Source: a virus
Direction: 5' to 3' (one strand)
Length of the DNA: 13,403 bases
Virus record (IMG/VR): IMGVR_UViG_3300006072_001582
Positions 200 through 13,400 of the stretch are shown here, one piece after another. The notes beneath the pieces were generated by a model. That model did no database searches and was not told the origin of the DNA. It was given only the letters and a program-made list of their open reading frames with translations. Position numbers and translations under genes: made by a program. Positions within the stretch are counted from its first letter, which is position 1. Each line of letters opens with the position of its first letter.

Positions 200-568
200 T
201 TACTGCTCAGCCTGAGCAGCGTTGAGCTCAGCCATAGCAGCGTAGAACTTAGCCCAAGCAGCCTTGACCTCAGGCTTAGACAAAGCAGCGTCGTACTTAG
301 CCAAAGCAGCGTGGTACTCAGCCCAAGCATCGTCGAACTCAGCCTCGGCAGCCTTGAACTCAGCCTGAGCAGCGTAGTACTCAGCCTTAGCAGCGTCACG
401 CTTAGCCCAAGCAGCGTCCTGCTTAGCCTCGTACTTAGCCTCAACAGCCTCGTACGCAGCCAAAGCAGCCTCGTACTCAGCCTTAGCCTCAGCAGTCATG
501 AGCTCAGCCGCAGCAGCGTAGTGCTCAACCAAAGCCTTAGCAGCGTCGATCGTTGTTACTTCCTTCAT
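200..568 (-). CDS. Ala-rich (about 45% Ala) acidic protein, probably alpha-helical, built on a 7-residue repeat with the consensus pattern x-A-A-x-A-x-aromatic
   Basis: 122-aa ORF with ATG at 566-568 and TAA at 200-202, preceded by a GAGGAGG RBS at 574-580. Aromatic residues (Y/F/W) recur every 7 residues at positions 32, 39, 46, 64, 71, 78, 85 and 92, and again at 54 with an 8-residue gap. The heptads read AEYEAAL, AAYEAVE, AKYEAKQ and so on. The overlapping frames 142-444(-) and 311-601(+) are low-complexity shadows of the same repeat. Confidence 0.7.
   Translation of the reverse strand: MKEVTTIDAAKALVEHYAAAAELMTAEAKAEYEAALAAYEAVEAKYEAKQDAAWAKRDAAKAEYYAAQAEFKAAEAEFDDAWAEYHAALAKYDAALSKPEVKAAWAKFYAAMAELNAAQAEQ
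215..545. repeat. imperfect 21-nt periodic tandem repeat at the DNA level, underlying the heptad repeats of the 200-568 protein
   Basis: Units of the form agcagcgt(a/c/g)gtactcagcc(t/c)tagc / cagcctcgtac recur about every 21 nt (for example 281-301, 302-322, 365-385, 386-406). The base composition is dominated by gca/gcc/gcg strings. Confidence 0.6.
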
Positions 569-677: not shown

Positions 678-863
678 CTACTTCTTGGCTGTGTACAGGA
701 CTGCAGCCACGAACACCACGAAGGTGAACGACAACGAGACCGTGAGTACGGTCTGTGCCTGCCCCATGGGTGTGTACCACGAGATCATTGTGTTCACGAA
801 CGATACTGCGAACGTGAACGCAAAGCTACCAAGGAGCAGGGAAATCAGCTGAAAACGCTTCAT
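678..863 (-). CDS. small membrane protein (61 aa) with two predicted transmembrane helices and a short basic C-terminus. A holin-like role is possible but unproven.
   Basis: The ORF is MKRFQLISLLLGSFAFTFAVSFVNTMISWY TPMGQAQ TVLTVSLSFTFVVFVAAVLYTAKK. It has two hydrophobic stretches of about 20 aa separated by a short polar loop, and ends in KK. A purine-rich stretch (AGAAAGAGA) lies upstream of the ATG at 861-863. Confidence 0.5.
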   Translation of the reverse strand: MKRFQLISLLLGSFAFTFAVSFVNTMISWYTPMGQAQTVLTVSLSFTFVVFVAAVLYTAKK

Positions 864-3376: not shown

Positions 3377-3769
3377 ATGTCAAACAACTGTGACTGTGAA
3401 ACTTGCAAGAACATAGCAAAGTACAGTGATACTACAGAGAAAAGTGCATATGTCTCCCGGTTTAAGGAGAGTATTGCCCAGATTTCCTCTCTTTCAGATG
3501 ATTTCTCCATCGATAAGCCAAAAGATGACGATGAAGACCACACTTATCGTATTAACGTAAGTGAATACTGTCAGCATGACGGTGTTTTTGTAGAATATTC
3601 AAGAGAAATCACCTTTTCTGCTTTCCAGATGATCATGGAAGAGCTTTTTTCGTCAGATGAAGACGATTTTGACCTAGATAACGACGAATATGAAGATGAT
3701 ATACGCGTTTTTGGCAGTTTAGACGAAGTTATTGACTACCTTCAGCAAGATAGAAGGGAAAAAGACTAA
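3377..3769 (+). CDS. highly acidic small protein (130 aa) with an N-terminal C-x-C-x2-C motif and Asp/Glu-rich C-terminal half
   Basis: The ORF follows the promoter and RBS above. It reads MSNNCDCETCKN..., then DDDEDH, SSDEDDFDLDNDEYEDD. The stop overlaps the next start (TAATG at 3767-3771). Confidence 0.75.
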   Translation: MSNNCDCETCKNIAKYSDTTEKSAYVSRFKESIAQISSLSDDFSIDKPKDDDEDHTYRINVSEYCQHDGVFVEYSREITFSAFQMIMEELFSSDEDDFDLDNDEYEDDIRVFGSLDEVIDYLQQDRREKD

Positions 3770-4191
3770 TGACCGTCGAAGAACACGACCAGAACATCAC
3801 TCATCATTACACCGTTCACTATCCACCTCACCCAGAGCGTGAAGATGACCCACATTACGTCGATTTTCACCATTTCCGTGAGAAAACGAAGGCAACAGCT
3901 AAATGTGCTATCGGTGAACACCGCAATGACTTCAGTGAGTGCGACTCTGAGCACCCTTTGGAGCTTCACCACACTCATATTGAGTTCTCATTGCAGAATG
4001 GCGTCGATCTTAAGTGGCTCGAAGTCGATTACCCCGGCGTTAGCGACCCAGACACCGTTGGTGCATGGGTAGAGAGCGCAACAAACCTGGAATGGCTATG
4101 CCTTTTCCACCACAGAGGTCATGGTGGCAAACACGTCACAGCTTACAGTGACTTTGAGGCAGCAAAATACGTGAGAGGACTCATCAAATGA
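3769..4191 (+). CDS. His-rich HNH-like nuclease fold protein (140 aa)
   Basis: The sequence ...CAIGEHRNDFSEC...LELHHTHIEFSLQNGVDL...ATNLEWLCLFHHRGHGGKH fits the HNH pattern: C...C, HH, N, then N-L-x-x-L-C-x-x-H-H...H. It is translationally coupled at both ends (TAATG at 3767, ATGA at 4188). Confidence 0.55.
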   Translation: MTVEEHDQNITHHYTVHYPPHPEREDDPHYVDFHHFREKTKATAKCAIGEHRNDFSECDSEHPLELHHTHIEFSLQNGVDLKWLEVDYPGVSDPDTVGAWVESATNLEWLCLFHHRGHGGKHVTAYSDFEAAKYVRGLIK

Positions 4192-4379
4192 GTAATTGGT
4201 CTAAAAGATACGCAGCAGAAAGCTGTTCATGCCATGGCTGGCCTAAACTGCAATGCCCTAACACTACTGAAGCAGAAAAACACATTATTTCTGAACTGAG
4301 TAGACAAGAAGGGCCATCTATTGGACAAGAACACTCACGCAGTAAAGAAGTAGCCGATTGGATCCTTGGAGAAGATTAA
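4188..4379 (+). CDS. small Cys-containing protein (63 aa), paralog 1 of the N-terminal WSKRYAAE-motif family
   Basis: N-terminus MSNWSKRYAAES, then SCSCHGWPKLQCP. The start overlaps the upstream stop (ATGA) and the stop overlaps the next start (TAATG). Confidence 0.7.
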   Translation: MSNWSKRYAAESCSCHGWPKLQCPNTTEAEKHIISELSRQEGPSIGQEHSRSKEVADWILGED

Positions 4380-4834
4380 TGAATTGGAAAAGAAGATACG
4401 CAGCTGAAGATACCTTTGGTTATGGTGATCCACACTACTTTGAGAAGCTGATTGATCACGCCAACTCAGGCAACCCCAAGCTTATTCAAAAGAAGCATGT
4501 TGATGATGCTAGGCGACACGGTATTACCGAAGACGAAATGATGCATGCCTATACCCAGGGTCACAATATCAGTTTATATGTTAGTGCACGTGCACGCAAT
4601 GATCCATGGCTTGGTGGCCCAGAAGCTTTAGAGCCCAGACTGCTAGCTACACATGATGAAGCGATTGACGCTCTCAACAAAAATGTTATTCCCAATCACT
4701 ATAGCTTGCTTAGATCAGTTGGAGAAACAATAGTCAATGGACGTCATAACCCCAACCCAACACCGCTGAGCCACGATGCTGCTGTAGCAAAATCAGGCAA
4801 GATGACTCCGTCAGAACGACAGAAATACTTCTAA
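4379..4834 (+). CDS. hypothetical protein (151 aa), paralog 2 of the WSKRYAAE-motif family
   Basis: N-terminus MNWKRRYAAED. I prefer the start at ATG 4379 over the upstream in-frame ATG 4358 because it reproduces the paralog N-terminus and has GGAGAAG 6 nt upstream. TAATG overlap at both ends. Confidence 0.7.
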   Translation: MNWKRRYAAEDTFGYGDPHYFEKLIDHANSGNPKLIQKKHVDDARRHGITEDEMMHAYTQGHNISLYVSARARNDPWLGGPEALEPRLLATHDEAIDALNKNVIPNHYSLLRSVGETIVNGRHNPNPTPLSHDAAVAKSGKMTPSERQKYF

Positions 4835-5202
4835 TGTCTTGGTCAGAACGTTACGCTGCTCGTCCTGACCAATGTCAGCTCTGTGGTGCATCAGATGATG
4901 GCACCCACACAATCGTTAGCAGCGGTAGGTGCAAAGACACTACCGATTGCGAGAACACGCAGAAGTACTTAGCAGAGAACCCACAGCCAGAGCCTCCTAA
5001 GAAAACTAGGAAAGCACCTTACGTAGACCGCAAGGGTATGGCTGCATGTGCTCATGGCGACTGCCAAGGTAAGAAGTACGAAGCAAAATACATGCATTGG
5101 TCTGATTCTTCAGTGCCAAGGCCATATTGCAACACTCACTCGTTCCTTGCAGGCAAAACTGGTTTGACTTTTAGTCAATGGAAAGATGTTTATGGGAGAT
5201 AA
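4834..5202 (+). CDS. Cys-rich basic protein (122 aa), paralog 3 of the WSKRYAAE-motif family
   Basis: N-terminus MSWSERYAARPD, then CQLCG...GRCKDTTDC...CAHGDCQGKKY...YCNTH. TAATG overlap with the upstream gene. Confidence 0.7.
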   Translation: MSWSERYAARPDQCQLCGASDDGTHTIVSSGRCKDTTDCENTQKYLAENPQPEPPKKTRKAPYVDRKGMAACAHGDCQGKKYEAKYMHWSDSSVPRPYCNTHSFLAGKTGLTFSQWKDVYGR

Positions 5203-5204
5203 TA

Positions 5205-5933
5205 ATGACTGATCGTATTGTTGGTAAATTAGGTAAGCTAGATCCTAAGCGCCCTGCTGGGTTGCACATGCTTGCTTTCTATCAGGGCAACCCGTTGCCA
5301 GCTGCACCAGAGAGCGTAGCAGTGCCAAACGTAGATAATTGGGGAATGTTAGGAAATGATAAATATGGGGATTGTACTTTTGCTGGTATTGTTCACGCCA
5401 GAATGGCTAACGCTGCTTTCTTACAACTTACAGAAGGATTCCCTTCTGACACCGAAGTCGAGCAAAGTTATCTCAATTATACGAATGGACAAGATGCTGG
5501 AGCGGTCGAGGCGGACCTACTAAAGTACTGGCAGACCAACGGCTTGTTCAACACAAAGCTTGCTGCGTTCGCCCCTACTGACCATGCTGACCTTGATGAG
5601 CTCCGTAGCGTAATTGCCTCATATGGGCTTGTATACATTGGTGTAAAGCTCCCAGTCACCTTCCAGCAGCAATTCCTTGACAACCAGCCATGGGACCTTA
5701 CAGGCACTCCTGCTGACAATCAGATCGAAGGTGGCCACTGTGTCATCCTCGTAGGTTACGACAAGGACTACGCTGAATGTATTACCTGGGGTAAAGTGCA
5801 GAAGGTAACGTGGAGATGGCTGCAAAGCTACATGGAAGAGAGCTGGGCTCTCATCACTCCAGAGATTGTTGAAAAGGGTCAATATGGCGATATGCGCCTT
5901 GAAGACCTCACTACTGACCTAGGAAAACTATAA
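5205..5933 (+). CDS. papain-like (C1-type) cysteine peptidase, 242 aa
   Basis: Motif order and spacing are as in the papain fold. They are NDKYGDC-TFAG (Asn/Gln six residues before the catalytic Cys), GGHCVILVGYD (compare papain HAVAAVGY) and ECITWGKV (compare NSWG). I prefer the start at ATG 5205 (GGGAGA 7 nt upstream) over the in-frame ATG 5178, which overlaps the previous gene. Confidence 0.55.
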   Translation: MTDRIVGKLGKLDPKRPAGLHMLAFYQGNPLPAAPESVAVPNVDNWGMLGNDKYGDCTFAGIVHARMANAAFLQLTEGFPSDTEVEQSYLNYTNGQDAGAVEADLLKYWQTNGLFNTKLAAFAPTDHADLDELRSVIASYGLVYIGVKLPVTFQQQFLDNQPWDLTGTPADNQIEGGHCVILVGYDKDYAECITWGKVQKVTWRWLQSYMEESWALITPEIVEKGQYGDMRLEDLTTDLGKL

Positions 5934-7012
5934 TGGCTACTATCCCACCAAGACTTAATGAGATCCTTGAAGAACAAGGTGACAAGGTTCGAATTGTTGC
6001 TAACGTTGGCCCAATGCAATACAAGACTGGTGGCACGTTCTCTGGTCTTCTTGTTGAAGCAATGGTTGGAGACGAAAGAATCGGTTATTTCACTGCTGAA
6101 AAGCAAGCTAGTGGCAACTACATCATGGATGGTGTTTACGTCGAGCCAGAATACCGAAACCAAGGCATTGCAACAGAAATGCTGCGCAAAGCGCACGCAA
6201 CTGTTAACGTTATTCCTTATGCATTGACAGATAACCAAGTTTACCAGTCAGAAGCTGGTAAGGGGTTCGCTGCTAAGGAACTTCGCATGGTCACAGCAAG
6301 CACAATTGTGACTGCTGGTCCTCTTCTTGCTATCCCAGAGCTTCTTGGTGCTGGAGAAGCAGTCGCTGGCGCTGGAGAGGCCGCTGCAGGTGCAGAAGGT
6401 GGTGGCCTTAGCGATGCATTGAAGAACTTGCCTAGTAGCAACTCAAGCGGTAATGAAAATGGCGACAATAGCAATGATATCAACAATACGCCAGATTCTG
6501 GTGGTGGACAGAGCTTTGCAAGCCCTGCTAACCCCGTAGTTGGTAGCATCATGCCTCTCGAGACTCACCCATTGGCTCCTACTAAGCCAATCACAGTTCC
6601 ACCTTTCACTGTTCCTGGTAAGCCATCAAAGACTCCTCCTAGCACACCACAACCATCTCCCACAACTTGGCAGCCAGCTCCTAAAACAATTGGTGATAAA
6701 ACAGAAGCTATGCCAGAACCTTCTCTTGAAGAAGAAACTTCTACTAAGAGTGAGCAAGAGACTAGTAACCCACCACAACAGAAAACTAAGCTTGAAACTG
6801 GTCAAGAACCAATGCCTACAAAGCAAACGCCAGAAAAAGGGTCATCTGGTCCTGGAGCAGGAATTAACCTTGAGCTTAATTTCCCACAAACTATATCTAA
6901 CTTCCCAACGCCAGCTCGACCAATCACTGGTAGCAGCAATAGATTAATTGATTTGTTGAATGAAGATCGTTTCAATTCAACTAACAATGACAAACCAACC
7001 AGCTGGGAATAA
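5933..7012 (+). CDS. N-terminal GNAT-family acetyltransferase-like domain (about 125 aa) fused to a long Pro/Thr/Ser/Gly/Glu-rich tail (about 230 aa) predicted to be disordered
   Basis: GNAT motif A is recognisable: VYVEPEYRNQGIATEMLRKA, matching V-x-V-x-P-E-x-R-x-x-G-I-A. The rest of the protein is GAGEAVAGAGEAAAGAEGGG, NSSGNENGDNSNDINN, PPFTVPGKPSKTPPSTPQPSPTTWQPAPK and similar. TAATG overlap with the upstream peptidase gene. Confidence 0.55.
   Translation: MATIPPRLNEILEEQGDKVRIVANVGPMQYKTGGTFSGLLVEAMVGDERIGYFTAEKQASGNYIMDGVYVEPEYRNQGIATEMLRKAHATVNVIPYALTDNQVYQSEAGKGFAAKELRMVTASTIVTAGPLLAIPELLGAGEAVAGAGEAAAGAEGGGLSDALKNLPSSNSSGNENGDNSNDINNTPDSGGGQSFASPANPVVGSIMPLETHPLAPTKPITVPPFTVPGKPSKTPPSTPQPSPTTWQPAPKTIGDKTEAMPEPSLEEETSTKSEQETSNPPQQKTKLETGQEPMPTKQTPEKGSSGPGAGINLELNFPQTISNFPTPARPITGSSNRLIDLLNEDRFNSTNNDKPTSWE
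6314..7009 (+). other. low-complexity coding segment (Pro/Thr/Ser/Gly/Gln/Glu-rich) within the 5933-7012 gene
   Basis: Translation is dominated by P, T, S, G, E, Q, N with no hydrophobic core. The shadow ORFs 6241-6552(-), 6540-6947(+) and 6626-6826(-) arise from this region. Confidence 0.6.
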
Positions 7013-7047
7013 GAGTTAAAATAGCCCCCAAGGCGCACTAGTCATTG

Positions 7048-8328
7048 ATGAGATACGCTACGCAGGATAACGGTAATTACGGAGACGATGCTTCGCTACG
7101 AGGCATTGAAGACGCTACCGAAGAAGACGATGCAGGGTTTGGCCTTCCAGGACAAAGCCAAGTCGGTACTGTTGGCCACTTTAGATTTGCAGACATTGGT
7201 AACGAAGACGAAAACTCTACGAGATTGACTGCTTTGGGCGATGAGCCTAAGGATACAATTGATCTCGAGGGGCAACCACCAGTTGTAAGCAATGAAGGGC
7301 TTTCTAGCGTATCTCCAGGATCGCTATCAACAATTATTGGAGCAAACATGAGCATGAATGCAAGAATTGCATACGTGATGGAGAATGGTGAGCCATTCTG
7401 TAATCACTGCGAAAAGACATACTTCCCAGGAACACGCATTGCATGCACAAATTGTGGTTGCAACCAGCCTGCTAATGACCACGGCATTGGCGAAAATAAC
7501 TTCTCGGGTGAGAGCCTTACAACAGTAGAAGGCCCTACTGCTGGCGACCTTGATGCTGGGCGTGACATCGTTAAGGAAGAAGCCAAGATGGGTGCCGCTG
7601 GTGCTTTCTACGCTATGTTCAAAGAAGCTAACGACAGTGAGCTTTACTACCAAGGCTACGGCGATGCACAAGCCGGTAAGCCAATGGACGAGGATCTTGC
7701 CCTCTTGAGCAAGGACTACTACAACGGTTACACACAATACAAGTTCTACAACAAGACCCCTCAGCAGAGCGAAGGTCAAAGCTTGTATGACATTAAACCA
7801 AATAGCAACTTAATTCCTCGTTCACACGATATGACACCTGGCGAAGCTGATCGTGGTCCTCTTGAGCTGACTGATGGTTTTGGTCACGCCACTGCATCCA
7901 AGCAAGCCGGTATGTATGATGCTGCACACATGTTCATGGATCGTAAAGACTCCCAAAAGGATGATACCAATAACTATCATGCAACTTTGCGTGATAATCA
8001 CCTCAATGCTGCTAACAAGTTGCAGGGTAACACTCCATGGACAGGAAGAACAAACTCCGATGGTTCTCCAGAGTTTCATGGTGCTGATACTTTCCATGGT
8101 AACAACCCTGATCACAGAGAAGCTTACTTCGCACACATGGATGCAGCAGAAGCACATGGAAAAGCTATAGCGACTCCTGGAACTGGCATGAACTACAACA
8201 AAGCTAAAAACAATGCAGATGTTGCTTCTAGAGCAGCTTGGGCAAAAGACCCAACGAACCCACCTGCTGCAAGAACTTCATCTATCGGTCTCCCCGTTGA
8301 TGTTCTCGAAAAGTTCTTTAGGTTCTAA
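7048..8328 (+). CDS. hypothetical protein (426 aa) with an internal Cys4 zinc-ribbon (CNHCEKTYFPGTRIACTNCGC)
   Basis: Long ORF. The first ATG is at 7048 (N-terminus MRYATQDNGNYGDD). No recognisable enzymatic motif. It is rich in Asp/Asn/Gly/Tyr. Confidence 0.7.
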   Translation: MRYATQDNGNYGDDASLRGIEDATEEDDAGFGLPGQSQVGTVGHFRFADIGNEDENSTRLTALGDEPKDTIDLEGQPPVVSNEGLSSVSPGSLSTIIGANMSMNARIAYVMENGEPFCNHCEKTYFPGTRIACTNCGCNQPANDHGIGENNFSGESLTTVEGPTAGDLDAGRDIVKEEAKMGAAGAFYAMFKEANDSELYYQGYGDAQAGKPMDEDLALLSKDYYNGYTQYKFYNKTPQQSEGQSLYDIKPNSNLIPRSHDMTPGEADRGPLELTDGFGHATASKQAGMYDAAHMFMDRKDSQKDDTNNYHATLRDNHLNAANKLQGNTPWTGRTNSDGSPEFHGADTFHGNNPDHREAYFAHMDAAEAHGKAIATPGTGMNYNKAKNNADVASRAAWAKDPTNPPAARTSSIGLPVDVLEKFFRF

Positions 8329-8329
8329 T

Positions 8330-8980
8330 ATGGAAAAATGTTTTATATGCAGAAAGGGTGAGCTTGTTAGAACATCTAGCAAGGCTGGCCCAGAAATCTA
8401 TTGCAATGGTTGCCGCCGCGTAATTCTTAGCTCATATCTTGGTTTTAGCATCACTGCTGCCAATATTAAGAACGAGCTGAGAGAATGCACTATTGAAACT
8501 GCAGAAGGCACTAAGCCTGGCTGGAAGGGTCCTGGAGACAGAGCCAAGTGTCACCCATACGAGCCTGGTCAAAAGGAAAGTGAAGAAGATGCACTTGATA
8601 AGGCAGCTGATTCAGTTTACTCTTGGAGACACCGCAAGGGTGCATCAAAGATCGTTAACGCACTTGCTTATTTTGAAGGTGCTCCCGATCTGATTGTCCC
8701 ACAGGCAGCAAGCTCACAGAACTTTGCCAACAACGGTCCTAACCCAGCTCCTCCTTCGGGAAAATCACAAGATTTTTCTGCCACTAACCAAAGTCCTATT
8801 GGCCAAGCTACTGCTCCCAATGACCTTCAACCCGGTGAGCTGAATGGTGCTAACCCATTGAATAGTGGTACTACTGCTAGCAAGAAGCTAGCCGAGTTGC
8901 TTTCAGAAGAGTTGGGCCCTAGTTTTTGCACAGAACATATGACACACGATGAATGTAATCATAGCCGTAACGCGCAATAG
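8330..8980 (+). CDS. hypothetical protein (216 aa) with an N-terminal zinc-ribbon (CFICRKG-x16-CNGCRR)
   Basis: ATG at 8330, 1 nt after the upstream stop (8326-8328). The upstream extension to 8213 offered by the ORF track would overlap the previous gene by 116 nt and was not adopted. Confidence 0.65.
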   Translation: MEKCFICRKGELVRTSSKAGPEIYCNGCRRVILSSYLGFSITAANIKNELRECTIETAEGTKPGWKGPGDRAKCHPYEPGQKESEEDALDKAADSVYSWRHRKGASKIVNALAYFEGAPDLIVPQAASSQNFANNGPNPAPPSGKSQDFSATNQSPIGQATAPNDLQPGELNGANPLNSGTTASKKLAELLSEELGPSFCTEHMTHDECNHSRNAQ

Positions 8981-9007
8981 TGTTTGAGGAAAAAGAAAGA
9001 TTCCATT

Positions 9008-9718
9008 ATGAACTACGAAAATATTGAGATTGAAGCCAAGACCGCAGCTGCTGATGCACGCTGGTTTAATGGTACCTCAGAGAGCATCTTGACACGTCTT
9101 GACAGGCTGCAGGACATTCTGGACAAGACTCGTATGGCTGCTAGCAACCCTAACGTTGGTCAAAGAGAGATCGAGCGCTATGCTAACATCATCACCGAGC
9201 TTGGTGCTGAGAAGGAATCGCTCGAGAAGCTGGCTTCAGAGTACGTTGACTTTGACACTGAGGACTACCTCAATAGCTTGCCTGGTGGCACAATTGCTAA
9301 GGAATATCGCGTTAGCAGTGCTGGCACAAGTGACCTTGGCGAAGACGATGGCAGCCTTTTGTACCGTACAGCTGCTGGCATTGAGAACGAGTTTGAGTCA
9401 GCTGACTGGATCAACTTCGTTACCGCTGGTGCTGAGGTTTGGGTCGAAGACCAACACAACCGCCTTCTGGGCAGCCAGCTTGACACACGTGAAGCTGCTG
9501 TTTACTACGTAGAGCGTAAGACGCTTCCTATCCTTGACACTGTAAAGCGTGCATCTATCATTGAAAACTTTGTTGACAATGTAGAGATTTGCCGTCGTGC
9601 TAAGAACGAGGGTGCAGGCTTCCGCAGCATCAAGAGTGCTAGCGCAAACAAGCTGTCTGCTCGCCTTGTTGAGCAATCAATTGATGAGTCGTTCGGAGAT
9701 GGCCTTAACTGGCTGTAA
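9008..9718 (+). CDS. hypothetical protein (236 aa)
   Basis: Long ORF. ATG 9008 is preferred over the in-frame TTG at 8984. A purine-rich stretch (GAGGAAAAAGAAAGA) lies upstream. No recognisable motif. Confidence 0.65.
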   Translation: MNYENIEIEAKTAAADARWFNGTSESILTRLDRLQDILDKTRMAASNPNVGQREIERYANIITELGAEKESLEKLASEYVDFDTEDYLNSLPGGTIAKEYRVSSAGTSDLGEDDGSLLYRTAAGIENEFESADWINFVTAGAEVWVEDQHNRLLGSQLDTREAAVYYVERKTLPILDTVKRASIIENFVDNVEICRRAKNEGAGFRSIKSASANKLSARLVEQSIDESFGDGLNWL

Positions 9719-9720
9719 CA

Positions 9721-10242
9721 ATGGACAATTGGAATGGCTTTAGAGTCGTCAGTGCAACAGAAGTAGAAGACGACACTAGAAACCCAGAATATGAAGAAGA
9801 TGTTAGTGATTTGGTCACTGCTCTGAAAAGAATGCTTGCTGAAGCATACGTTCTCTATCACACTATTCATGGTTTCCACTGGAATGTTGTTGGTAATGAC
9901 TTCTATCAATATCACAAGTTCTTTGATGAGATCGTAGATGATATCTACGAAAACATTGACCCAATTGCAGAAAACATCAGAAAGCTTGATGCTAAAGCTC
10001 CTTTTGTAATGAGCCAATTGTCTGGACTTAGTAGAATTAAAGAAGTAGGTTCTAACGATGATGATGCACGTAATCTTGCTAAGCAATTCTTAGATATGAA
10101 TAACGAATACATTGATCACATTAAAAAGGTCTTTGTTCTTGCTGACAAAGATAACGAGCAAGGTATTGCAAACTTCATTGCTGAACGCATTGATCAACAC
10201 CAAAAGTGGAGTTGGTTCTTGAAGGCGTCTACCGAGGCATAA
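9721..10242 (+). CDS. dps: Dps-like / ferritin-superfamily protein (173 aa)
   Basis: Strong match to the Dps signature: LYHTIHGFHWNVVGNDFYQYHKFFDEIVDDIYENIDPIAENIRKL (compare Dps Y-x-K-x-H-x-FHW-x-V-x-G-x-x-F-x-x-x-H-x-x-F-E-E...D-x-IAERI). The C-terminal ADKDNEQGIANFIAERIDQHQKWSWFLKA also resembles the Dps helix-D region. The ferroxidase-site residues (His and Asp/Glu) are present. Confidence 0.8.
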   Translation: MDNWNGFRVVSATEVEDDTRNPEYEEDVSDLVTALKRMLAEAYVLYHTIHGFHWNVVGNDFYQYHKFFDEIVDDIYENIDPIAENIRKLDAKAPFVMSQLSGLSRIKEVGSNDDDARNLAKQFLDMNNEYIDHIKKVFVLADKDNEQGIANFIAERIDQHQKWSWFLKASTEA

Positions 10243-11806: not shown

Positions 11807-12868
11807 ATGGCATCTGCAAATACTCCTCAGCGCAAGAACTTTCGCTGCGTCTTTAACCGTTATGTCTCAGAATATAACAAGGACGCAGTCGTTCGTTCAA
11901 TCATGTCGCAGTTCGAAGGATACTTTGCTGATCCTGAAGTTACTTTGATGGATGATGGGTTTATCCTATCTCTTCAACTTGGTGATAACCTTTCAGCTAC
12001 GATGGCAAGAGACAAGATTCTCTGGAACCAGTTCGTAGAGAGCGTAACTGCTGCTGATGCCATCCGTAAGATACAAATCATCCGTTTACCTAAGGCTGGC
12101 AAAGAGAATGAGGGCACCGTAGGCGCCTGGGGGCCACACGGCAGTGATTCTGGTGTTGATGAGAAGCTTAACGTACCACTAGACCACGATCCACAATACA
12201 CGATCGGTCCTAATGAAGACGGATCGCTTGGTTGGCATGCTAGCGTACACTACGCTGACCCAACCAGTGAAATCTTGCCAACTGTCTATGGTCCAGGTGC
12301 TGAAGAAAGCCAACCTGTTGACGAAGACACCCCAAGTGACATTACTGACATGGATAGTGATGGAGCTACCCCTCTAGACGGTGGTGCACCAGCTAAGAAT
12401 CACCCAAAACTGTTTATGGGTTTCAAGATCGTTGCTATTGACAGCGATACTGGTGGTGCTTTCACTCTTAACCGACCAAACGAGTTCCAGAGTGTCAATG
12501 ATGCTCCTCGAGACGGTGGGCTTCACCAAGAAGCCACTCCAGCTACTGGTATTGGTGGTGGAGCTCCAATTAGTGGTGCTAGCTGGTACGTAACGCAACC
12601 TGGGAACGAACAAGGTACAGATTTGGGTACTGAGCGAGTCAAAAGCGATGCTTCAGCTGCTCCATTCGGGAACATTGCCGTTGGTAGCAGAACTGTAGAT
12701 GAGCCAATCGAAGAAGACGTTGAAAGTGCTGTTGACCTGCCACAAGCACGTGGTGGTGGTCAGTCTGTGCCAGATGGTGGTGCAGTAGAGGGCTGGTTCG
12801 CCAGTAATCACTTTGGTTTGAATGAAACATATGGATATGAAGGTGATGTAGATGACTACGACATATAA
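11807..12868 (+). CDS. hypothetical protein (353 aa) with a globular N-terminal half and a Gly/Asp/Pro/Ala-rich acidic C-terminal half
   Basis: Long ORF, ATG 3 nt after the upstream stop. The C-terminal half has repeated GGAP / GGGAP / GGGQSVPDGG stretches. Confidence 0.65.
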   Translation: MASANTPQRKNFRCVFNRYVSEYNKDAVVRSIMSQFEGYFADPEVTLMDDGFILSLQLGDNLSATMARDKILWNQFVESVTAADAIRKIQIIRLPKAGKENEGTVGAWGPHGSDSGVDEKLNVPLDHDPQYTIGPNEDGSLGWHASVHYADPTSEILPTVYGPGAEESQPVDEDTPSDITDMDSDGATPLDGGAPAKNHPKLFMGFKIVAIDSDTGGAFTLNRPNEFQSVNDAPRDGGLHQEATPATGIGGGAPISGASWYVTQPGNEQGTDLGTERVKSDASAAPFGNIAVGSRTVDEPIEEDVESAVDLPQARGGGQSVPDGGAVEGWFASNHFGLNETYGYEGDVDDYDI

Positions 12869-13400
12869 GGTATATGCCGCAGGACAAGACCCAACAAAGT
12901 ATGTACCAGGTGACTTCATCCTGGTTTCATCTAAGGGCATTCTAGCTAAGTTCATTCGTTTTGGTCAATTCATCCGTTACCACGGAAAGATGAAGCCTTT
13001 TGCTCATTGGAACCATGCAGCTATGATCATCGATGAAGGTGGAACCATCGTTGAGGCTGTTGGCCGTGGTGTTATCGTAAGCAACATTAGTGAATACAAA
13101 GACGTAGAGTATTACTACGTTACAACAAAGCTTAACAAGCAAAGCCGTGATCAAACGGTTTCTGCTTGCAAGAGCTTCATTAAGGATAAGTATGGTTTCC
13201 TAACCATCTTGAGTATTGCCTTGGAGTTGCTGACTGGTATTAAGATGCAGTTCACAAATAGCAACACCATGATTTGTAGTGCCGTAGTAGCACAATCCTT
13301 GTGGGCAGGCGGCATTGTATTCGACCGCAACCCTTACCAAATGATGCCAGCTGATCTTGCTGCTTCTTTCAATATTTTGACAGAATTGCCAAATAATTGA
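12852..13400 (+). CDS. putative permuted NlpC/P60-superfamily (YiiX/YaeF-like) hydrolase, 182 aa
   Basis: A His motif (FAHWNHAAMIIDEGG) precedes a Cys-Ser motif (NTMICSAVVAQSLWAGG). This is the His-before-Cys order and the C-S dipeptide typical of permuted papain-fold YiiX/YaeF-type proteins. The start overlaps the upstream gene by 17 nt. Confidence 0.45.
   Translation: MTTTYKVYAAGQDPTKYVPGDFILVSSKGILAKFIRFGQFIRYHGKMKPFAHWNHAAMIIDEGGTIVEAVGRGVIVSNISEYKDVEYYYVTTKLNKQSRDQTVSACKSFIKDKYGFLTILSIALELLTGIKMQFTNSNTMICSAVVAQSLWAGGIVFDRNPYQMMPADLAASFNILTELPNN

Follow-up and report, generated by a model that had tools for sequence, protein, structure and literature searches.

What is a free-standing papain-like peptidase doing in the middle of a block of hypervariable phage genes? 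The question is raised by IMG/VR virus record IMGVR_UViG_3300006072_001582, a stretch of 13,403 nucleotides that was analysed as a whole (hereafter the window, to which coordinates refer unless another locus is named). An earlier note, written from the sequence, had pointed out a gene for a papain-like (C1-type) cysteine peptidase behind three genes whose products share a short N-terminal sequence (hereafter the tag), and had proposed the enzyme as a candidate for processing that tag. Modelling and comparison strongly support a soluble product made in the cytoplasm, a cysteine endopeptidase whose nearest counterpart is xylellain, a short C1 enzyme of bacteria. Our main reading of its role is tentative: with a probability of roughly 0.35, the peptidase cleaves the tag, or the same motif at gene junctions, in the proteins that are co-transcribed with it.

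Sequence profiles did not place the protein in family C1. The Pfam profile Peptidase_C1 (PF00112) did not match the window protein at E values up to 10, nor any of 91 diverse relatives at E values up to 0.01. The sole Pfam match of the window protein was a sub-threshold one to Peptidase_C39_2 (PF13529; E 0.072, below the gathering score); NCBIfam gave no match, and PHROGs placed the protein in phrog_19005 ('unknown function', E 2.7e-29). When a profile of the family was compared with PDB sequences, xylellain was reached at E 1.2 with His178 aligned to the xylellain catalytic-His motif. A search of PDB sequences with the window protein gave only matches to alanyl-tRNA synthetase (E 0.25–0.34) and the like, which were taken as chance. 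An hhalign comparison with papain, for which an approximate papain sequence was used, gave a probability of 5% and covered the His strand only.

Structure comparison pointed to xylellain instead. An AlphaFold2 model based on 38 homologues (pLDDT 89.7, pTM 0.90) matched xylellain (E 4e-9), Legionella Lpg2622 (E 1e-5) and papain and cathepsins (E about 1e-4) in a Foldseek search of the PDB, in which all of the top 50 matches were C1 enzymes. Against BFVD, the best Foldseek matches were phage and giant-virus proteins annotated as Peptidase_C1. The model had the two lobes of the papain fold and the order Cys before His: the Cys begins the central helix, and the His lies in a beta-strand of the second lobe. 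It showed the full L+R architecture of C1 in a single domain, without a wall-binding domain, and its structural alignments were closest to proteases and much nearer to C1 than to C39. The protein is, on the basis of this model, very probably a papain-fold, C1-like cysteine peptidase that is predicted to be active. It lies outside C1 proper on two counts, the sequence profile and the catalytic Asn. The C1-type assignment made earlier accordingly stands for the fold and for the Cys/His topology, but not for membership by sequence profile or for the catalytic Asn. An identity as an actinophage 'lysin A, protease C39 domain' was rejected, since tblastn with three family members matched only 4 of 50,697 GenBank phages.

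Residues invariant in the 91 relatives (29–50% identity) were Gly10, Asn51, Cys57, Gly99, His178 and Trp195, and Asn51, Cys57, His178 and Trp195 were also invariant in the 38 close relatives. The Cys motif (YGDC57TFAG) and the His motif (GGH178CVILVGYD) were found as the earlier note had described them. Its third element, ITWG, retained Ser/Thr-Trp-Gly but lacked the Asn, which is replaced by Ile here and by Val, Ile or Leu across the family. The following active-site and N-terminal features were assigned.

5355–5357, plus strand: Asn51, predicted oxyanion-hole residue at the position of papain Gln19 (Cys minus 6), invariant in 91 of 91 relatives, with its role taken from papain.
5373–5375, plus strand: Cys57, predicted nucleophile at the N-terminus of helix 57–72 (DSSP), invariant.
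5736–5738, plus strand: His178, predicted general base in strand 174–185 (GGHC motif), invariant and aligned with papain His159.
5781–5792, plus strand: I193-T194-W195-G196, counterpart of papain N175-S176-W177-G178 by column counts and hhalign register.
5838–5840, plus strand: Glu212 of the DEAW motif, Glu in 90 and Asp in 1 of the 91 relatives.
5205–5321, plus strand: conserved N-terminal extension, residues 1–39 (K-L-G-K-L-P...Y...LP..P), which precedes the P-x-x-D-x-W start of the mature-type domain.

Among the 91 relatives, position 193 was Val in 55, Ile in 24 and Leu in 7, position 194 was Thr in 79 and Ser in 12, position 195 was always Trp and position 196 was Gly in 87. Catalysis would rely on the thiolate of Cys57 paired with the imidazolium of His178; Asn51 would form the oxyanion hole, and Thr194-Trp195 would shield His178. 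Because the canonical Asn is missing, the active site would be either a dyad or one in which Thr194 or Glu212 orients His178; a role of Glu212 as stand-in for the third catalytic residue is speculative. The 39-residue extension was confidently modelled, and more residues aligned to zymogens and to xylellain than to mature enzymes. Residues 1–39 may form a built-in prosegment along the cleft.

Inteins typically occupy active-site motifs, and several were found at the predicted catalytic residues of relatives. In P0133, P0151 and P0228 the intein was inserted between G-D and Cys57, with the catalytic Cys as the +1 extein residue, and in P0150 it lay between His178 and Cys179. Some of these inteins carried LAGLIDADG domains. 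Their positions abutting Cys57 and His178 support a working active site.

The closest known enzymes are short bacterial C1A peptidases of the xylellain type, namely xylellain itself (Xylella fastidiosa; PDB 3OIS) and Lpg2622 (6A0N). The window protein differs from them in a structural-alignment identity of only 14–18%, in the Val/Ile/Leu family position in place of the catalytic Asn, in an Asn that replaces Gln as oxyanion residue, and in a loop from P-x-x-D-W to the Cys that is about 7 residues shorter. It can also be distinguished from the bacteriocin leader proteases of families C39 and C39_2, to which its match was sub-threshold: a transporter fusion is lacking, and the tag has no double-glycine motif.

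The peptidase ORF was confirmed at 5205–5933, with an ATG at 5205–5207, a TAA stop at 5931–5933 and a Shine-Dalgarno-like GGGAG 6 nt 5' of the ATG. Since the 38 aligned relatives all start with the matching Met, position 5205 was taken as the true start rather than the in-frame ATG at 5178. The stop codon of the upstream tagged gene (5200–5202) leaves a spacer of 2 nt before the peptidase gene. On the other side, the peptidase stop overlaps the start of the next gene at 5933 (TAATG). Given this spacing, the overlap and the absence of a terminator-like site on the plus strand between 3377 and 7012 in a scan of the window, the peptidase gene most likely shares a transcript with the three tagged genes before it and the GNAT-like gene behind it. 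Promoter- and terminator-like sites in the window did not exceed shuffled expectation. Neither a signal peptide nor a transmembrane (TM) segment was predicted in the 242-amino-acid peptidase. The genes of this probable transcription unit are as follows.

4188–4379, plus strand: tagged gene 1, 63 amino acids, N-terminus MSNWSKRYAAE (tag codons 4188–4220).
4379–4834, plus strand: tagged gene 2, 151 amino acids from the ATG at 4379, N-terminus MNWKRRYAAE (tag codons 4379–4408), in TAATG overlap with gene 1.
4834–5202, plus strand: tagged gene 3, 122 amino acids, N-terminus MSWSERYAAR (tag codons 4834–4863).
5205–5933, plus strand: peptidase gene, papain-fold (xylellain-like) cysteine peptidase of 242 amino acids, delimited by the ORF and the homologue alignment.
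5933–7012, plus strand: gene coupled downstream of the peptidase, 359 amino acids with a GNAT-like N-terminal region (Pfam Acetyltransf_1/7, E about 2e-6).

The tag was characterised in the phage lineage of the window, defined by peptidases of 54–90% identity on contigs of up to about 140 kb. It occurred in 87 distinct N-terminal copies and about 22 genuine internal ones, with the consensus M-N-W-N-x-R-Y-A-[S/A/K]-[E/D] and a broader form [M/S/T]-[N/S]-W-[N/S]-x-R-Y-[A/S]. Trp, Arg and Tyr were invariant and the next position was Ala or Ser in 97%, after which the information content collapsed. Glu or Asp stood at position 10 in 52 of the 87 copies. The cleavage context RYAAE|x that had been put forward earlier is weakly grounded, as the acidic residue is present in only about 60% of the tags and conservation does not extend beyond the Ala/Ser that follows R-Y. 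The codons were mixed: for Arg, AGA (48) and AGG (5) together made up 53 AGR codons beside 62 CGN codons, Tyr was encoded by TAC (61) and TAT (54), and the Ala and Asn codons varied likewise. Mixed codons for invariant residues imply selection on the peptide rather than on the DNA. A cause at the DNA or RNA level, such as a recombination linker or a translation signal, was rejected on these grounds as the main cause of the tag; recombination at the tag still seems to occur.

A search of IMG/VR with the exact consensus as DNA matched only freshwater-type contigs, many of them peptidase-bearing, and within IMG/VR the tag is specific to the phage lineage of the window. Its copies lay on the strand of the peptidase gene, from 0.25 to about 12 kb upstream, and the gene immediately before the peptidase was tagged in 21 of 31 loci. 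Some relatives carried up to about 10 tagged genes in a row (tag loci include L007 2095–9720, L010–L038 and L119–L149).

Tags also mark the boundaries of modules at which genes fuse and split, as judged from alignments that begin at an internal tag. Stand-alone tagged proteins aligned from residue 1–3 onto longer proteins, beginning exactly at the internal tag. At least four independent cases of fusion or fission at the tag were found, with 95% identity in one stand-alone/fused pair. In BLAST alignments, the 122-amino-acid product of tagged gene 3 corresponded to the C-terminal part of the fusions in L033 (443 amino acids) and L026, from the internal tag onwards.

A further form of the tag is split between two genes. 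Orthologues of the 5933–7012 product ranged from 47 to 502 amino acids and kept the first ~15 and the last 4 residues; in the window, the GNAT-like part is followed by a hydrophobic Ala/Gly-rich stretch and a long Pro/Ser/Thr/Gln-rich tail. Despite this range, the gene ended with [S/T]-[S/T]-W-x-stop throughout the lineage, and the next gene started with M(M)-[R/K]-Y-A. Joined to the preceding ...W-x, this start restores W-x-x-R-Y-A exactly. The two halves lie at the following positions.

6998–7009, plus strand: first half of the split tag, C-terminus ...T-S-W-E, the conserved C-terminus of the 5933–7012 gene.
7048–7059, plus strand: second half of the split tag, the conserved N-terminus M-R-Y-A of ORF 7045/7048–8328.

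The gap between the halves measured 29–42 nt in the lineage and carried a conserved TAAGAGTTAAAAT motif (intergenic 7013–7044 in the window), which may be a phage promoter. A copy of TAAGAGTTAAAAT with 2 mismatches was present at 1270–1282 in a divergent intergenic region. No conserved RNA structure was found in the gap with RNAalifold. Translational bypassing or readthrough over 7010–7047 was rejected in view of the variable gap and the lack of matching take-off and landing codons and of a conserved RNA fold.

Two sequences that resemble parts of the tag were seen further downstream. A Dps/ferritin-like gene at 9721–10242 (Pfam Ferritin, E 7e-20) starts with M-D-N-W-N-G-F-R-V, which is tag-like with one extra residue, and the gene before it (8984–9718) ends with ...L-N-W-L-stop in nearly all lineage members.

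The conserved free halves beside the peptidase gene, ...[ST][ST]W[x] at a C-terminus and M-R-Y-A at an N-terminus, together with the aliphatic residue found family-wide at the position of papain Asn175, would suit a protein that is not a hydrolase in vivo. Such a protein could be an inactive scaffold with a permanently bound N-terminal segment, or a transpeptidase or ligase by which W-x C-termini and x-R-Y-A N-termini are joined; transpeptidation is known from Cys-His enzymes with other folds. We consider this very improbable. A working active site is suggested by the Cys, His, oxyanion Asn and Trp, invariant over thousands of clusters, and by the inteins at these motifs; activity is retained in papain mutants that lack Asn175, we know of no precedent for protein ligation by C1-like folds in phages, and the fusions already exist genetically.

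Processing of the tag by the peptidase is suggested by a motif that, like a processing site, serves at N-termini, inside fusions and at a gene split, and by the peptidase being the sole recognised protease in the block. The substrates would be co-transcribed proteins with [M/S/T]-[N/S]-W-[N/S]-x-R-Y-[A/S]. The enzyme would trim the tag from N-termini and would cut internal tags to release fused cassettes as separate proteins, and the hypervariable gene block would be a polyprotein-tolerant cassette array. Papain-type enzymes select their substrates mainly through a bulky hydrophobic P2 residue in the S2 pocket. One candidate scissile bond is R-Y-A|x, with Tyr at P2 and a small residue at P1, which fits where conservation stops; another is W-N|x-R-Y-A, with Trp at P2, which fits where the natural gene split lies. 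Both fit a papain-type S2 and neither is preferred.

The link between tag and peptidase is circumstantial, and a number of observations weigh against it. Because synteny is inherited, the co-location of peptidase and tag counts roughly as a single evolutionary observation. In two loci of the lineage with intact peptidases of 56–58% identity (L035 and L038), no W..RY tag was found within ±10 kb; the 124.7-kb contig of L038 carried a downstream array with M-x-x-M-R-Y-A-like starts. Among the genes of 43 diverse IMG/VR loci with family members, no shared N-terminal motif was found beyond ordinary paralogues. A simple cleavage model would not lead one to expect that both halves of the split tag are conserved. 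The family is far wider than the tag, occurs on actinobacterial chromosomes, includes a lysozyme and lipase fusion as well as TM-bearing relatives, and is found beside lysis genes in other phages, as detailed below. In phage T4, moreover, the corresponding N-terminal sequence is removed by the head protease, with no dedicated enzyme (PMC3012670).

The T4 precedent, the capsid-targeting sequence (CTS), resembles the tag in being an N-terminal peptide of ~10 residues common to unrelated, hypervariable, clustered proteins (PMC3012670). The T4 CTS ends in Glu, and ~60% of the tags carry Glu or Asp at the tenth position. The systems differ in that conservation of the tag ends at R-Y-A, internal and split copies exist here, and there are no head genes within ±10 kb of the peptidase. 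The T4 prohead protease gp21, whose gene belongs to the head module, is a serine protease that cuts after Glu, whereas the candidate here is a predicted papain-fold cysteine enzyme inside the cassette block. Another point of comparison is Prp (family C108), which trims an N-terminal extension of ribosomal protein L27 and of the capsid and scaffold proteins of Staphylococcus phage 80alpha. The likeness, putative on the side of the window, lies in a dedicated cysteine protease and a short conserved N-terminal leader common to several unrelated proteins. Prp, in contrast, is a host enzyme with an unrelated fold and a different leader motif, and to our knowledge it has no cassette array or internal junction copies.

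In a more far-reaching version, which we regard as doubtful, the papain-fold protease and a portable eight-residue junction motif (x-N-W-N-x-R-Y-A) would constitute a polyprotein-style processing system for the hypervariable cassette array. With cutting at every copy of the motif, the genes of the block could fuse, split and shuffle at the motif with function kept, and the N-terminal, internal and split copies would all be accounted for, because the protease would cut wherever the motif occurs. If true, bacteriophages would have their first example of a non-capsid cysteine protease that is dedicated to processing and recognises a defined tag, and the protease and tag would make a simple, transferable pair of phage origin. 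Such a system would also explain how a block of accessory genes can put up with constant fusion and fission, and would help to show what the hypervariable proteins of this uncultured freshwater phage lineage, roughly 100 in number, are for. By analogy with the T4 internal proteins, anti-defence cargo is the obvious guess for the tagged proteins. Were the enzyme merely a horizontally acquired housekeeping protease, the finding would be ordinary.

How widely the peptidase occurs was examined with a profile search of 1.84 billion cluster representatives, which returned 4,829 metagenomic clusters (at 50% identity) at E values up to 1e-3 and 3,268 at up to 1e-10. A separate scan with the window protein alone returned close relatives only. 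In IMG/VR, one peptidase motif pattern alone gave more than 410 matches. The GenBank homologues, in 4 of the 50,697 phage records, belonged to three Komagataeibacter phages and one metagenomic myovirus. The remark that the peptidase is not a routine phage gene thus agrees with the GenBank count but not with the thousands of metagenomic clusters and the IMG/VR matches. Every named homologue was a 'hypothetical protein', and none of the 240 homologues listed had a precomputed Pfam domain. One locus (L066) held two copies of the family about 170 nt apart (7977–8711 and 8882–9730).

Already known are the kind of enzyme and the acquisition of xylellain-type peptidases by phages. New are a family that is very large and unannotated, escapes the C1 profile, lacks the catalytic Asn and has a conserved N-terminal extension, the targeting of both catalytic residues by inteins, the dual distribution in phages and actinobacteria, and, in the lineage of the window, the embedding of the peptidase in a tag-delimited cassette array. 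Apart from any link to the tag, the interest of the family lies in its span across phages and Actinomycetota in thousands of unannotated clusters, with both catalytic residues invaded by inteins.

Chromosomal homologues with 41–45% identity were found in metagenome-assembled genomes (MAGs) of Acidimicrobiaceae, Acidimicrobiales and Micrococcales (L204–L208 and L198–L203), on contigs of up to 1.29 Mb. These Acidimicrobiia and Micrococcales homologues had ordinary metabolic and housekeeping neighbours of non-phage character and no signal peptide. A WhiB gene was present near the relative P0122 (L197). The homologues in Actinomycetota MAGs and this WhiB gene hint at freshwater Actinomycetota as hosts of the phage lineage.

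As these are the nearest cellular homologues, the peptidase could be an acquired actinobacterial enzyme of the xylellain type that acts as a general or host-directed cytoplasmic protease on host or untagged phage proteins, for takeover, anti-defence or nutrient release. The tags would then serve otherwise, for instance in capsid targeting like the T4 CTS, with any processing left to the normal prohead protease. Short C1A peptidases of the xylellain type are reported to have passed horizontally from bacteria into Caudoviricetes (Myoviridae, Siphoviridae; PMC10380794), and the T-even internal proteins are hypervariable anti-defence proteins with only the CTS in common (PMC3012670). Other phages with the family have their own S78 or ClpP prohead proteases, and the peptidase lies in an auxiliary-gene region of the window, which includes Dps, metallophosphoesterase, dCMP deaminase, NUDIX and GNAT genes. 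We hold this explanation to be unlikely: it accounts neither for the embedding between tagged genes and a split-tag pair nor for the enrichment beside lysis genes elsewhere, and no host target can be named.

That enrichment emerged from a survey of 43 non-redundant, diverse IMG/VR loci, in which the two genes on either side of the peptidase were inspected (150 proteins). At least 10 of the 150 neighbours had wall-hydrolase or wall-binding domains (Rv2525c-like in three, GH25 in two, Phage_lysozyme, Amidase_2, CHAP, Peptidase_C71 and PG_binding_1), and holins were also present. Among 145 proteins at positions ±6 to 8 of the same loci, used as a control, none of these was among the matches listed, which were to portal, MuF, ClpP, S78 protease, baseplate J, RecA and integrase proteins and the like. 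A lysis context was seen in about a quarter of the loci of distant relatives. In MW202816 the peptidase gene overlaps an N-acetylmuramoyl-L-alanine amidase gene after the baseplate genes, and in several high-GC loci it directly follows tail genes and precedes holin-like TM proteins. P0262 is a fusion of Phage_lysozyme, Lipase_3 and the peptidase domain, and at least eight relatives (P0124, P0164, P0172, P0227, P0247, P0149, P0177 and P0330) have two to four N-terminal TM helices before a conserved K-x-G-[KR]-L-P motif. Another member is fused to a PLD-like domain. Part of the family is lysis-associated, as follows from the enrichment of lysis-gene neighbours over the control, the MW202816 overlap, the lysozyme fusion and the TM-bearing relatives. 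Many phages have it within a lysis module, a setting in which no role has been assigned to a C1-like protease.

The peptidase of the window might likewise be a lysis-module enzyme that acts late on the cell envelope and lies among the tagged genes by coincidence, like the dispersed lysis genes of large phages. It would cut stem peptides or cross-links of the peptidoglycan, or an envelope or lysis protein, after permeabilisation by a holin, and at least eight relatives have N-terminal TM domains that are holin-like. Papain-superfamily wall hydrolases (CHAP, NlpC/P60, C71) are common (PMC10318531). In the lineage, a gene of the permuted papain type lies 7 kb downstream and is followed by a small one-TM protein. 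We think this explanation possible, if somewhat unlikely. In five lineage loci, on a genome of roughly 130 kb, the 10 kb on either side of the peptidase yielded no lysis, head or tail family and no other recognised protease; the genes there encode metallophosphoesterase, Dps, dCMP deaminase, NUDIX, ADH and epimerase proteins. No holin or TM protein adjoining the peptidase was found in the window or the lineage. The full C1 protease fold differs from the papain-superfamily endolysin domains CHAP/C51, NlpC/P60/C40, pseudomurein endoisopeptidase PeiW/PeiR and C71, which are minimal folds of about 120–150 amino acids. The actinobacterial homologues, cytosolic among housekeeping genes, argue for an intracellular protein or peptide substrate. 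No clear lysis cassette surrounds P0122 and P0124, the closest relatives inspected outside the lineage, and only about a quarter of the distant loci have a lysis context.

The downstream gene at 12852–13400 encodes a second papain-superfamily protein, related to Peptidase_C92 and YiiX-like permuted papains (E 1.6e-4, below the Pfam cut-off). About 230 nt after it, just past the end of the window, the corresponding locus L003 encodes a conserved one-TM protein of 104 amino acids (MSDPINTTTTRAIGRAFVAAIVGALIAWGA...; L003 13634–13948), and the two are possibly a lysis pair. No significant similarity linked this protein to the TM domains fused to the peptidase relatives, and such a link was rejected. 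In L074, a C92-like gene and TM proteins also precede the peptidase homologue.

Among the remaining genes of the window, 3769–4191 (L007 8392–8814) encodes a highly conserved His/Cys-rich protein of 140 amino acids with a weak match to an HNH endonuclease PHROG (E 0.004). The stop of this gene and the start of tagged gene 1 share an ATGA, and in distant lineage members it precedes the last tagged genes. On the strand opposite the main block, 200–568 (minus) encodes a 122-amino-acid Ala/Glu/Lys-rich repeat protein with AAKAEY-type heptads, and 678–863 (minus) a 61-amino-acid protein with two predicted TM helices.

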